A DNA stretch of 29,878 nt from IMG/VR virus record IMGVR_UViG_2675903394_000003; one strand, given 5' to 3'. The notes beneath the pieces are model-generated. The model saw nothing but the letters and a program-made list of their open reading frames with translations, was not told the DNA's origin and searched no databases. The stretch is from a virus. Lineage: Duplodnaviria > Heunggongvirae > Uroviricota > Caudoviricetes. Position numbers and translations under genes: made by a program. Positions within the stretch are counted from its first letter, which is position 1. Every line of letters begins with the position of its first letter. Of this stretch, positions 1,958 through 29,878 are shown one piece after another.

Positions 1958-4405
1958 TTAACCGTCATGCATCATGCTGGCACGGGCGCGCGCACGTTTA
2001 TCCCGCTCGTATTTTTCGAGCGCATCCTGTAACTGGCGGTCAAGCTGTGTCCCCGGCGCAGTACCACCCGTCAGGCTGATGTGATATTCGTTTTTACTCT
2101 GGTCTACATAAGAGCGGCCAGCCGGTGCCGTGACCGGCTGATAAGCCTGATAGCCTGCATAAGAGCTGGTCGCCGGAATATAACCACCGGTGCCATACGT
2201 GGCGGCATTAGTCCTTGCGGCGGTCTGGTCAAGTGTGTCTGACTCTTTGTTGATAACACCGAGTTTTTCCAGTACCCAGTCAATACCACTGCGCAGTTTG
2301 TTGAACGCATTAAGCGGCAGCATCAACGCGTCAGCCAGTGCCTGCCCGAACATGACGCCCGTGTCACGGCAACGGTTCAGGGTGTCCTGTGTGGCTTTAA
2401 CCGGGGCAATCAGGTTTTTAAACCACTGCCACGCGGCCTGTAACTTTTCGCCCAGCCAGTCAAACACCGGCTTCAGTGGCGTGAACAGTTCCCCCACCGG
2501 CGCAAATGCCGCTTTCAGCCCTTCAACCACACCGCCAAAGAATGCGCTGACAGGCTCCCAGTATTTACGGATAAGCAACGCCCCGGCGACAATGGCAGCC
2601 ACCACGGCCACAACCGGCCAGCTAATAGCCCCGATGGCGGTCATAACAGCACTGCCAACCGTCGTGAAGATTGCCCCCATTGCGCCTGCTGCCGCGATGA
2701 TGGCATTGATGCCGGTGATAACCGGCCAGGCTACGAGGCCAATGGCACCGATGACACCAGTCAGCGCCAGTGCACCACCGACAATGAGGCCGATGGTTGA
2801 CGCCAGTGATTTGTTTTTCTGGATCCAGCCGTCGAGTTTTAACACATACTTTGTGGCCGTCTGCGTGAGATTACGCAGTGCGCCTTCCTGCTGGTCAAAC
2901 AGGTCAGTTCCCACCGCCTCATAAGCGGACTGAAACTCCTTAAAGTCACCGCCGAGGTTATCCTGCATGATTTTAACCAGCTCTTCCGTTTTACCGTCCG
3001 AGGCTTTCAGCGTGGCGGTCAGCTTATCCAGTTTTCCGCTTGCTGCCGCTGCCAGTAAAACGTTCGCTGATTTCAGGGCTTCCTCACCAAAAATGGTTTT
3101 AAGGTATTCCCCCTTCTGAGACGTTCCCAGCTTGTGTTTATCAAAGCTGGCCTGAATCTCTTTCAGAATGGTGAACAACGGACGCATATTTCCCTTTTTG
3201 TCCGAGGTTTTAACGCCAAGCTCTTTGAGTGCATCCCATGCTTTTCCAGTCGGTGCCTGTAATCGGGTGACAACGGCGCTGCTACCCGTCCCCGCCATTG
3301 ACCCCCTGATGTTATTGTCATGCAGCACACCTGTCATGGCTGCTGCCTGTTCAAGACTTACACCTGCCGTCTTCGCAACCGGGCCGAGGTAAGTCAGTGC
3401 ATCACTGAGTCCCTGAAAATCAGCCGCCGACTTATTCATCGTTGCCGACAACACGTCGCCCACATGGCTGACATCATCATTTGACAGTTGAAACGATGCC
3501 TTAGTCCCCAGCAACAGTTGCGCGTTTTCTTCCATCGACCGCTGATTCGCCAGTGCCATATTCAGCGTGACCGGCGTTGCCGCCTGAATAGCCGCAGCAT
3601 CTCCACCCGCTTTCGCAATAATAATCTGCGCACCGGCCGCATCATCCGCCGAGGCGGCGGTATTGTCGCCGAGCTGGCGCGCCTGTTTGCGTAATGCGGC
3701 CATTTCGGTGGAGTCTTTTGCCACACCGAGCACGGCCTGTAATTCTGAGTTTTTCTGCGCAAACTCATAACCGGGCATCAGCAGCTTAACTCCGGCCATC
3801 GTTCCCGCCGCCGCAATCCCCACACCGGCAGCGCCTACTGAGGCCATATTTCCGGCCAGTTCCTTTCCTGCCTGATAACGCTGTTTGACTGCGTTAAGTT
3901 TTGCCTGTTGTGCACTGACACGCGCCAGCGCGTCACGCTGACGGTTAAGCTGGGCGGTGGTTTCACTGATACGGTTTTTCAGCCCTCGTTCATCATGCGC
4001 CAGATTACGGGTATTAATACCCGCCTGACTCAATTCCTGACGCTGGCGCTGTACCGACAATCTCAGGCTGTTATATTTCGCCTGTAACTCAGACACATTT
4101 TTACGCGCGGCTTCCATTGCCTTTGCCTGTGCATTTGTCGGTCGTTCAGTATTTTTAAACTGGACAGCCAGAGCTGCGGCTTCCTGTCTGGCTTTTTTCA
4201 GTTCCTGACCAGTCACGGCGAGCTGTGCACTGGTCTTGCGAAATCCCTCAATACGGGATGCCTGACCGTTCAGCTCGCGCAGTGATTTTTGTGTGTCCCG
4301 GATATCCCCCGACAGCGACTTACTCGCTGTACGGATGGATTTAAACGGGCGGGATGCCTGGTCAACAGCCCTGAGCAATACCTGTAATTTTACATTGTTA
4401 CTCAT
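1958..4405 (-). CDS. T: Tail tape measure protein T, 815 aa
   Basis: Length identical to P2 gpT; coiled-coil-rich N-terminal half and Gly/Ala-rich hydrophobic segment; follows E/E'. Confidence 0.93.
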   Translation of the reverse strand: MSNNVKLQVLLRAVDQASRPFKSIRTASKSLSGDIRDTQKSLRELNGQASRIEGFRKTSAQLAVTGQELKKARQEAAALAVQFKNTERPTNAQAKAMEAARKNVSELQAKYNSLRLSVQRQRQELSQAGINTRNLAHDERGLKNRISETTAQLNRQRDALARVSAQQAKLNAVKQRYQAGKELAGNMASVGAAGVGIAAAGTMAGVKLLMPGYEFAQKNSELQAVLGVAKDSTEMAALRKQARQLGDNTAASADDAAGAQIIIAKAGGDAAAIQAATPVTLNMALANQRSMEENAQLLLGTKASFQLSNDDVSHVGDVLSATMNKSAADFQGLSDALTYLGPVAKTAGVSLEQAAAMTGVLHDNNIRGSMAGTGSSAVVTRLQAPTGKAWDALKELGVKTSDKKGNMRPLFTILKEIQASFDKHKLGTSQKGEYLKTIFGEEALKSANVLLAAAASGKLDKLTATLKASDGKTEELVKIMQDNLGGDFKEFQSAYEAVGTDLFDQQEGALRNLTQTATKYVLKLDGWIQKNKSLASTIGLIVGGALALTGVIGAIGLVAWPVITGINAIIAAAGAMGAIFTTVGSAVMTAIGAISWPVVAVVAAIVAGALLIRKYWEPVSAFFGGVVEGLKAAFAPVGELFTPLKPVFDWLGEKLQAAWQWFKNLIAPVKATQDTLNRCRDTGVMFGQALADALMLPLNAFNKLRSGIDWVLEKLGVINKESDTLDQTAARTNAATYGTGGYIPATSSYAGYQAYQPVTAPAGRSYVDQSKNEYHISLTGGTAPGTQLDRQLQDALEKYERDKRARARASMMHDG

Positions 4406-27901: not shown

Positions 27902-28095
27902 TTCCAGACCCTCCGGCTTTTCAGAAAGGTCAGAGCCTTTTTTAACGGACTCTGTTTTTTGGTACGGATAATGATTCCCTTGCGCCCCTTCCCGTGGGTG
28001 ATGGTGAAGTCAATCGCCCTGGGGCTTTCGTTACGCAATAACTGAGCAATACAACGAGGCTCATTCATGCTCACAACCCCATCCACAAAAGCCAT
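27898..28095 (-). CDS. Small early protein (orf78-like), 56-65 aa
   Basis: Stop overlaps the B start (translational coupling); start is either the ATG at 28095 or the ATG at 28068. Confidence 0.5.
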   Translation of the reverse strand: MAFVDGVVSMNEPRCIAQLLRNESPRAIDFTITHGKGRKGIIIRTKKQSPLKKALTFLKSRRVWK

Positions 28096-28343
28096 GCATC
28101 GCGCTGTTCAACCGGTCGGTTATAAAACGCCTCATGCACACCGCGATTGAACTCAGGAATGAAAACCAGTTTGTCGCCTGCGCGAGCATTTGGTTTGTTT
28201 GGATCACGAAACTCAACAACCGGCAGCTTATTAGCTTTAATCATTTCAACAACCGCAGTACGCGGTTTTCCGAGCAATTCTGCGAACTTATCAGGGTGTA
28301 CCGCGTCAATCGGATACTGAATTACATAGTTGTTTGCGTCCAT
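28071..28343 (-). CDS. cox: Cox-like excisionase / transcriptional regulator, 90 aa
   Basis: First early-operon gene opposite C; motifs KLPVVEF, RAGD and DAWLLWMGL resemble P2 Cox; ATG at 28341-28343 with AGGTG; the track start at 28388 is a TTG. Confidence 0.75.
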   Translation of the reverse strand: MDANNYVIQYPIDAVHPDKFAELLGKPRTAVVEMIKANKLPVVEFRDPNKPNARAGDKLVFIPEFNRGVHEAFYNRPVEQRDAWLLWMGL

Positions 28344-28491
28344 AAAACACACCTGTCGTGCTAATCTTATTTGTTCCAGCCCTTTCAAAACCGCTCAGGA
28401 ACGCTCCTGACTGGCTGGACTCACGCCCCAAAAGGTTTCCAAACAAGTACCTTTTGAGGGGAATATAGTCTCCATAAGGGAACCATGTCAA
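28344..28491. promoter_or_regulatory. Immunity switch region between cox and C, expected to hold Pe, Pc and operators
   Basis: Position between the early operon and the repressor gene; contains a perfect 8-bp inverted repeat CAAAAGGT-N12-ACCTTTTG at 28429-28456 and TCAGGA-N4-TCCTGA at 28395-28410. Confidence 0.55.
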
Positions 28492-28785
28492 ATGAAAATA
28501 TCGGAGAAACTTCGCGCAATCCGCAAAGCTGAGGGATTAACGCAAAAAAAATTTTGCGAACTTAGCGGATTAGCACTTAGCTCATTGAAAAATTACGAAG
28601 GAGGACATAAAGAGCCTGGACTACAAATCGTAAAGCAAGTGGTAAACACGCCTCTGTTTAAAAAATATACACTGTGGATTATGACAGATGAGGTTGCGCC
28701 AGAAGCCGGGCAGATTTCCCCGGTCGTCGCACACTCTGGGCAAGAAGAAACAACCTCGTCACACTCAGACCGCAAAACTGGCTAA
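28492..28785 (+). CDS. C: Immunity repressor C (HTH), 97 aa
   Basis: HTH-like segment LTQKKFCELSGLALSSLKNYE; C-terminal KYTLWIMTDEVAPEAGQISP...ETTSSHSDRKTG resembles P2 C; position before int. Confidence 0.8.
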   Translation: MKISEKLRAIRKAEGLTQKKFCELSGLALSSLKNYEGGHKEPGLQIVKQVVNTPLFKKYTLWIMTDEVAPEAGQISPVVAHSGQEETTSSHSDRKTG

Positions 28786-28897
28786 CTATTTACCGAAATT
28801 ACATGCACATAAAATGCATGTTACTGGTAAAAAAATATTCACCACACAACCATAAAGGGTCAAACAACAAGAAAACACGTGCTCATCGGAGGGCTTT

Positions 28898-29878
28898 ATG
28901 AGTATCAGAAAGCTCGATGATGGACGTTATGAAGTGGATATTAGGCCTCGCGGTCGCGATGGAAAGCGCATCCGCAGGAAATTTGAAAGAAAAGCTGAAG
29001 CACTAGCATTTGAGCGATACACAATCGCCAATGCCAGTCAGAAAGAATGGGGAGGCCAGCGAGCAGACCGCCGAACTTTGACAGAATTGCTCGACATCTG
29101 GTGGAAATACCACGGGCAAAACCACGAGCATGGGACAAAAGAGTTTAATCATCTGCTCAAAACCATCAGCGGTATAGGTGATATACCAGTGAGTCGGATG
29201 AACAAAAGGGCTTTGATGGATTATCGCTCCATGCGACTACGTGATGGCATCAGTGCTGCAACGATAAACCGCGACATGTACCGATTATCCGGCATGTTCA
29301 CAAAATTAATTCAATTAGATGAATTTTCCGGGCAACACCCAATTCACGGACTGCCGCCACTGACGGAGGCTAACCCTGAAATGACGTTCCTAGAAAAAGC
29401 AGAAATCGAAAAACTGCTAAATGTTTTGACTGGTGATGACTTACTTGTCGCGCTTTTATGTCTGAGCACTGGAGGAAGATGGACGGAAGTTGCCACGCTA
29501 AAACCAGCACAGATTACAAGTTGCAGGGTTACCTTCCTGAAAACCAAAAACGGTAAAAAGCGAACAGTGCCGATATCTGAGGAACTGGAGAAAAAAGTTA
29601 AAGAGGAGGCCAGCGCCAAATTGTTCAAGGTCGATTATGAGAAGTTTTGCGGGATTTTACGCAGAGTAAAACCTGACATACCTCCCAATCAGGCAACCCA
29701 CATTCTGCGGCATACATTCGCAAGCCATTTCATGATGAATGGGGGCAACATAATTGCACTGCAACAGATTCTGGGGCATGCGAGCATTCAGCAGACAATG
29801 ACCTATGCGCATCTTGCGCCTGACTACCTGCAGAACGCCGTCGCTCTGAATCCACTAAAAGGCGGAGTGACGTTATAA
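28898..29878 (+). CDS. int: Tyrosine integrase, 326 aa
   Basis: C-terminal catalytic signature HILRHTFASHFMMNGG...LGHASIQQTMTYAHL (R, H-x-x-R, Y); GGAGGG upstream; terminates at the window edge. Confidence 0.92.
   Translation: MSIRKLDDGRYEVDIRPRGRDGKRIRRKFERKAEALAFERYTIANASQKEWGGQRADRRTLTELLDIWWKYHGQNHEHGTKEFNHLLKTISGIGDIPVSRMNKRALMDYRSMRLRDGISAATINRDMYRLSGMFTKLIQLDEFSGQHPIHGLPPLTEANPEMTFLEKAEIEKLLNVLTGDDLLVALLCLSTGGRWTEVATLKPAQITSCRVTFLKTKNGKKRTVPISEELEKKVKEEASAKLFKVDYEKFCGILRRVKPDIPPNQATHILRHTFASHFMMNGGNIIALQQILGHASIQQTMTYAHLAPDYLQNAVALNPLKGGVTL

Follow-up and report, generated by a model that had tools for sequence, protein, structure and literature searches.

The 148-bp interval that separates cox from the repressor gene C in the window (the whole stretch of DNA analysed here, 29,878 nucleotides long) is probably a lysis/lysogeny switch of the WPhi type, in which C would act on two operator sites, O1 and O2, while the arms of a perfect inverted repeat (IR1) would form a shell around O2 with a role as a stem-loop. 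IR1 is a shell common to the whole P2/WPhi-like prophage family, placed around one of two repressor sites, and the switch is therefore an ordinary one. It represents a new immunity class of the known WPhi-type switch, with regulators of the P2-type C/Cox family, and has no new architecture. The anatomy of the locus, its homologies, and the conservation and covariation of the repeat are direct observations; from these sequences we infer that C binds O1 and O2 in this phage, where both transcripts start, and that the RNA has a role of its own.

The cox-C interval, its predicted promoters and candidate operators

The open reading frame list places the gap between cox and C at exactly positions 28344-28491, within the gene order int - C - control region - cox, C and cox pointing away from each other (Table 1). 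The Cox protein, of a winged-helix family and encoded first in the early operon, matches the Pfam family Phage_Cox (PF10743, E = 1.6e-22) and the P2 Cox structure 4LHF (E = 1.6e-18), and C, a helix-turn-helix protein of the P2 C type in which helix 3 is the recognition helix, matches the P2 C structures 2XCJ and 2L49 over residues 3-97 (E = 1.9e-26). The initial annotation had proposed an immunity switch belonging to a heteroimmune relative of P2. The switch and the divergence of both regulators are borne out by alignment, since neither protein is near-identical to its P2 counterpart (C 46.5%, Cox 39.6%), but both are closer to those of WPhi (64.9% and 81.1%, respectively). Heteroimmunity is a fair inference because no isolated phage in the phage collection searched has a C more than 65% identical to that of the window.

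Table 1. Positions of genes, promoter elements, candidate operators and repeats in and around the cox-C interval
Feature	Position	Strand	Description
cox	28343-28071	-	ORF of 90 aa, Phage_Cox family; lytic repressor and excision factor
Pc extended -10 (putative)	28359-28367	+	TGcTAATCT; start at ~28372; aligned to WPhi Pc annotation (AJ245959 1911-1875)
IR2	28375-28419		Second hairpin-forming repeat; TCCAGCC/GGCTGGA, inner TCAGGA/TCCTGA; predicted in folds of both strands
Candidate Cox-binding direct repeats	28390-28409		ACCGCTCAGG/AACGCTCCTG; 10-bp period; proposed by analogy with WPhi Cox
IR1	28426-28459		Perfect 8-bp arms CAAAAGGT (28429-28436) and ACCTTTTG (28449-28456) around the 12-nt spacer TTCCAAACAAGT; extended by CCC/GGG
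O2 (candidate operator)	28434-28451		GGTTTCC-AAAC-AAGTACC; inside IR1; positional homologue of WPhi O2
Pe -10	28467-28462	-	TATATT; consensus scan; aligns with annotated WPhi Pe feature
O1 (candidate operator)	28467-28484		AGTCTCC-ATAA-GGGAACC; fills Pe spacer; homologous to WPhi O1
Pe -35	28491-28486	-	TTGACA; consensus scan; abuts C start codon, as in WPhi
C gene	28492-28785	+	ORF of 97 aa, Pfam HTH_3; immunity repressor
int	28898-29878	+	ORF of 326 aa, Pfam Int_N and Phage_integrase; tyrosine integrase

Immunity classes have been grouped at a C identity of at least ~95% (PMC3448106). The window falls outside WPhi immunity class III, with a C only 64.9% identical and with a spacer and an O1 unlike the WPhi half-site TATTGGTGAC. 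On sequence grounds, by the criterion of at least ~95% identity, it constitutes a separate immunity class that is new relative to the phage collection searched, and the prophage thus carries an immunity type absent from the isolated phages of that collection. The UTI89 prophage PhiECO5 (class IX) was considered as a member of the same class and rejected, its repressor being a different protein of 113 aa.

The window is a P2-like prophage of E. coli, found with 100% identity in strain WP2-W18-ESBL-08. The prophage is rare among 5,426 E. coli genomes, being present in 3 at 99% identity or more and in 43 at ~91%. In one 91%-identical relative, E. coli L3Cip3 (L115, positions 3486-3823), the int end of the prophage adjoins cpxP, a gene that we take to lie close to the published WPhi attachment site. 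For that site only an MG1655 coordinate is listed (Table 1 of PMC3448106).

The early promoter Pe agrees with the consensus at 11 of 12 positions, has an 18-nt spacer, and aligns base for base with the annotated WPhi Pe; this strong promoter would fire toward cox on the minus strand, from a putative start at ~28456. At Pc no -35/-10 pair was found by consensus scan, and its position comes solely from alignment to the WPhi annotation. The weak Pc, near the start of cox, would fire toward C and int, and the two promoters would face each other. An out-of-frame ATG at 28486 (window 28486-28533), which shares bases with the Pe -35 (cATGTCAA), begins a frame of 15 codons, MSNENIGETSRNPQS; it belongs to the -35 hexamer, and with only this short frame it was rejected as the C start. 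The homologous ATG of P2 is the true C start (MSNTISEK...), and C of the window and of WPhi begins 6 nt further on, in another frame.

Judging from the sequence and from WPhi, C most likely shuts Pe through two related sites, O1 in the Pe spacer and O2 just downstream of the Pe start; in P2-type switches Cox in turn represses Pc. The two sites have GTYTCCA in common, in the same orientation and 33 bp apart, flanking the Pe -10. They are alike at 11 of 18 positions (per-position chance ~1e-3) and at 7 of 10 over the WPhi-equivalent 10-mers; the spacer of IR1 alone agrees with O1 at 6 of 12 positions, which is background level. Within the whole window the motif RGTYTCC-N4-RRGWACC occurs at O1 and O2 only. 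Each site is partly dyad-symmetric, which fits the published view that a symmetric C dimer occupies each 'half-site' (PMC2995052). The specific operators here are thus most likely O1 and O2, the arms of IR1 being a conserved shell around O2.

Conservation of the inverted repeat and of its spacer

The arms of IR1 and their 12-nt spacer are present as first described, and the right arm ends 35 nt upstream of the C start codon, close to the original figure of about 36 bp. Each 8-mer arm is single-copy in the 29.9-kb window, and with one mismatch or bulge the complementarity reaches 28426-28459 (11 nt, 91%). By itself IR1 is weak evidence, a mildly unlikely event by chance: 63 of 2000 dinucleotide-preserving shuffles of the 148-nt region (3%) give an equally long perfect repeat (at least 8 bp, loop of 3-20 nt), and the whole window gives 24 hits of this kind, which amount to ~17 distinct repeats. 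These counts are what speaks for IR1 as a chance feature of an AT-rich promoter region, an explanation that can hardly be credited and is refuted by the comparative data, as 39 distinct relatives keep the repeat in position while showing compensatory changes, and WPhi has it in identical form. It is this conservation across relatives that makes IR1 more than a product of chance.

The comparison covered 80 genomic loci encoding C homologues and 31 viral contigs, from which a WPhi-like set of 39 distinct sequences was used for the arm alignment. Complementary arms occur at the same position in all 39, and the spacer is 12 nt long in 38 of them. Standard pairs make up 82% of the arm pair cells against 75% in shuffles (a value reached in 0 of 500) and at most 57% when the partner is slid, and 33 arm cells are altered on both sides where 10.8 would be expected (again 0 of 500). 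More specifically, alignment columns 22 and 49 record a stepwise change at one pair, C-G, T-G and T-A, and an A-T pair is swapped to T-A in eight relatives, among them L090, L091 and L093; L092 and L094, which have a recognition helix (aa 17-44) matching that of these three, retain A-T. The position of the arms, their 12-nt spacing and their start at Pe +1 are constant from Escherichia to Photorhabdus, Xenorhabdus and Serratia. The AAAGGT/ACCTTT portion is conserved as sequence as well as in its pairing, and locus L038 has other arm sequences in the same geometry.

A scan of IMG/VR for the exact arms returned 55 loci in P2-like context, which fall into ~10 spacer classes, each with its own O1. 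Because identical arms accompany ~10 different spacer/O1 pairs, the arms cannot carry immunity specificity. The spacer matches its own O1 at a mean of 8.0 of 12 positions and the O1 of other classes at 6.35 (sd 0.96); the arms are therefore generic, and specificity is carried by the spacer together with O1. Among 13 relatives sharing the C recognition helix, O1 is nearly invariant and the arms vary, and O2 is better matched in relatives with the same recognition helix (e.g., GGTTTCCCTATGGATACC in L099). The initial view of the repeat as an operator thus holds in part: O2 lies at the centre of the repeat, whose inner GGT/ACC resemble the two ends of O2, but the arms are not the element of specificity. 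The innermost GGT/ACC of IR1 would accordingly be shared with O2, and the outer A4/T4 and C3/G3 blocks would be generic to the WPhi-like clade and would not set immunity specificity.

Reverse-complemented spacers are seen in some relatives. Locus L006 has the spacer CATTAAGTCAAA and L005 has CCTGACTTGATG, the reverse complement of which (CATCAAGTCAGG) agrees with the L006 spacer at 9 of 12 positions, between the same GGT/ACC ends; the observation also concerns L018, L002 and L003, and the sequences lie ~45-56 nt upstream of C in L005 and L006. Across loci, the best match of the spacer to its own O1 is direct in 20 and inverted in 20. O2 therefore copies O1 directly in some phages and in inverted form in others, and the switch of spacer orientation looks as if the spacer had been inverted in place between the arms.

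More distant C homologues have a different arrangement of sites. In L053, L061, L038, L075 and L107 (C start at 1501 or 1001), two clear palindromic sites of 16-20 bp flank the Pe -10 upstream of C. Examples are GGAACCTATATGGGTTCC and GACCCTATATAGGTTCC in L053, GTTCCTTGCGAGGAAC in L061, and perfect 18-bp arms in L107. These sequences suggest that dyad-symmetric sites are the family norm for C homologues.

Possible function of the arms

The arms CAAAAGGT/ACCTTTTG recur unchanged in WPhi, in the corresponding place and around another spacer (CACCAATACACA), and published work on its operator therefore bears directly on the window. Mutagenesis has shown the WPhi C operator to consist of two 10-bp direct repeats, TATTGGTGAC, which lie on either side of the Pe -10 at a distance of 34 bp from each other (PMC1904268); both sites, O1 and O2, are required (PMC1904263). 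These repeats were located at 1771 and 1805 of the WPhi locus (L001), which places O2 within the 12-nt spacer of the WPhi inverted repeat. The proposal that an inverted-repeat operator would mark a different switch architecture finds no support in this arrangement, as WPhi has the same arms and yet its C binds direct repeats. The arm content of the WPhi constructs can be derived from the oligonucleotides printed in PMC1904263: pEE938 stops right after O2, without the distal arm, and pEE939 and pEE940 have lost 6 and ~10 nt of the proximal arm. C represses all three as well as wild type in vivo (PMC1904263), and the arms are therefore dispensable for repression in WPhi.

Replacement of the phage flanks nevertheless has effects in WPhi. 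Without them the output of the Pe reporter is ~100-fold higher, for which the authors give no explanation, the gel shift with C shows two bands (vector flanks) rather than three (phage flanks), and slightly more protein is needed for a shift, although repression in vivo and the measured dissociation constants are unchanged (PMC1904263). The last base of the Pe feature in the WPhi annotation, C1793, is at the same time the first of CAAAAGGT, and the deletions described as lying 'between the start site and O2' begin one base past C1793 (PMC1904263), from which it follows that the early transcript begins at the foot of the stem. A text-term search of PMC1904263, PMC1904268, PMC2995052, PMC3448106 and PMC5009727 found no mention of the WPhi inverted repeat.

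We favour a shell function in which the RNA forms a stem-loop right at the 5' terminus of the Pe transcript, because the arms show compensatory changes and begin at the WPhi-mapped start of the early transcript. The same stem-loop would also lie within the Pc leader. In either transcript it would affect RNA stability or expression, not repressor recognition. 5'-terminal stem-loops protect E. coli mRNAs from 5'-end-dependent decay. The predicted IR1 hairpin of the window has an energy of -14.1 kcal/mol on the plus strand and -14.3 kcal/mol on the minus strand, and the means over the 39 relatives are -15.2 kcal/mol (z -3.7) and -14.0 kcal/mol (z -3.6); the energies are thus similar on both strands and show no strand preference. 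The fold of the 122-nt Pe leader of the window, in which IR1 is the 5'-terminal hairpin, beats 200 of 200 shuffles (z -3.0), and the fold of the Pc leader has a z of -1.9. A wobble test likewise picks no strand, with G-U-type cells numbering 20 for the Pc strand and 11 for the Pe strand, next to 58 other mismatches, and RNAalifold on the 39-sequence alignment gives a weak consensus of -1.5 kcal/mol. The outer C3/G3 pairs, being upstream of the putative Pe start, are not explained by a hairpin of the Pe transcript alone. Against the RNA reading, AAAGGT/ACCTTT is conserved as sequence, a pattern seen more typically where a protein or a promoter imposes the constraint; the Pe of P2 lacks a 5'-terminal hairpin, and the WPhi gel shifts alter when the flanks are replaced.

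A second hairpin, IR2, begins at about +3 of the putative Pc transcript, between the Pc start and IR1. Each of the 33 relatives tested is predicted to form a hairpin in the equivalent 59-nt region (mean z -2.9 and -2.5); the stem sequences differ, and the stems covary (CCAGTCCC/GGGACTGG in WPhi, CCAACCC/GGGTTGG in L005 and L010). These results come from per-sequence folds; pair counting was dropped, the right arm being out of register in several rows of the MAFFT alignment. The two hairpins suggest a symmetric design in which each transcript opens with a stem-loop, IR1 for Pe and IR2 for Pc. In the Pe-Pc region of WPhi, a 12-nt direct repeat is the binding site of Cox (PMC5009727), and repeats of the ACCGCTCAGG/AACGCTCCTG type recur as two copies of AMCGYT in L005, L007 and L010. 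No IHF-type site was seen by eye, no rho-independent terminator was found by a scan of 28200-28600, and Rfam 15 families gave no match up to E = 1 over 28000-28900 on both strands. IR1 was also rejected as an intrinsic terminator, having a 12-nt loop and no T-run following it on either strand.

That the arms themselves are the sequence read by C, an inverted-repeat operator replacing the direct repeats, is very improbable. In its favour, a repressor bound over the repeat, and so over the Pe start, would obstruct RNA polymerase; P2 C forms a symmetric dimer similar to palindrome-binding proteins (PMC2995052), and the likeness of O1 and O2 in the window is modest. However, identical arms are found in WPhi, which is probably heteroimmune (C 64.9% identical), and with ~10 other spacer classes, and WPhi constructs lacking either arm are still repressed. 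The arm centres, moreover, are 20 bp apart, too far for one helix-turn-helix dimer on two adjacent major grooves, and O1 has no second copy of the arms, though both sites are needed in WPhi. An arrangement in which the arms serve as symmetric DNA flanks of O2, favouring the strong bend induced by C and tuning affinity or the O1-O2 complex with no base-specific reading, is unlikely. For it speaks that the repeat and O2 have one dyad axis, with A-tracts ~11 bp and G/C runs ~16 bp from it, that strong DNA bending is a property of C proteins (PMC1904263), that AAAA/TTTT and CCC/GGG are retained as sequence blocks, and that hairpin energies lack a strand bias; the changes in band number and in the amount of WPhi C needed point the same way. 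It is opposed by the unchanged repression and dissociation constants of WPhi without flanks, by the absence of such flanks at O1, by the differing arm sequences of L038 in an unchanged geometry, and by the steps at columns 22/49 and the A-T/T-A swaps within one C class, which look like selection for pairing.

The extended dyad might also be without function, kept by template-switch (quasi-palindrome) mutation seeded by a partly palindromic operator, with the spacer occasionally flipped. The reverse-complemented spacer of L005 relative to L006, the even division of direct and inverted O1 matches, and perfect arms beside strongly diverged flanks are all as such a process would leave them. Mutation bias alone, however, should not keep the arms in 39 of 39 lineages, the constancy of position, spacing and Pe +1 start between genera is at odds with it, and a second, unrelated hairpin, IR2, is retained in the same leader; this origin is accordingly judged improbable. 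The reading preferred here remains that of C acting on O1 and O2, with the arms as a shell that functions as a stem-loop.

A broader reading, possible though on balance doubtful, is that WPhi-like switches carry an undescribed RNA layer and that C-family repressors bind dyad-symmetric sites. The ~85-nt overlap of the Pe and Pc transcripts would be made up of a pair of hairpins, both conserved and covarying; IR1, which encloses O2, would open one transcript, and IR2, which encloses the putative Cox-binding region, the other. By governing how stable the transcripts are or how sense and antisense RNA pair, they would tip the choice between lysis and lysogeny. As the comparative data suggest, each site of a C-family repressor would be dyad-symmetric, 16-20 bp long and occupied by a single dimer, and the sites could have either orientation relative to each other. 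If this is true, the 'direct repeats' known from P2 and WPhi would be degenerate forms of such sites, and the puzzle of a symmetric dimer acting on non-palindromic repeats would be eased.

Relation to known switches

The present result is mainly a correction: the repeat marks no new operator logic, and the locus can be annotated by its homology to WPhi. The family-wide dyad at O2 together with the second hairpin offers a modest, testable lead for the 100-fold effect of the flanks on WPhi Pe and for how a symmetric C dimer reads its sites.

The closest known system is WPhi (immunity class III, AJ245959), which resembles the window in gene order, in its face-to-face Pe and Pc (Pc being putative in the window), in a Pe -35 that abuts the C start, in arms that begin at the Pe start and enclose O2, and in an O1 within the Pe spacer. 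The candidate O1 and O2 of the window are 33 bp apart, against 34 bp in WPhi. The two differ at 4 of 9 positions of the recognition helix (LSSLKNYEG against LGTVKNYES) and in their half-sites (GTYTCCA... against GTCACCAATA), and the Pc-side region of the window has no copy of the 12-nt WPhi Cox repeat; overall DNA identity is ~73%.

In P2 (immunity class I) the regulators C (2XCJ) and Cox (4LHF) are homologues of those of the window; its promoters converge, as Pe and the putative Pc would here, and its Pe -10 stands between two repeated C sites, as it does here between the candidate O1 and O2. Its half-sites, however, are 8 bp long and 22 bp apart, and it lacks a CAAAAGGT-type repeat at the Pe start. 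A different perfect 8-bp inverted repeat, TTTAGTGC-N10-GCACTAAA, is present in P2 (L113, 1933-1958), where it lies past O2 on the downstream side, within the Pe/Pc overlap; the left arm of this repeat copies part of the operator half-site, and the right arm overlaps a sequence like a Cox box.

The CI/Apl switch of 186 is also that of a P2-like phage with face-to-face promoters, and its repressor binds inverted repeats; CI is a two-domain protein of ~196 aa that works with CII and distant operators (PMC1904263). CI is unrelated in sequence to C, and a 186-type CI with inverted-repeat operators is ruled out for the window, whose repressor is a 97-aa protein of the C type. The restriction-modification controller C.Esp1396I is a small helix-turn-helix dimer, structurally like P2 C, that places one dimer on each repeated palindromic site (PMC2995052). 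Compared by description, its sites, 15 bp from centre to centre, resemble the twin dyad-symmetric sites of the distant C homologues, although the system is an unrelated one.
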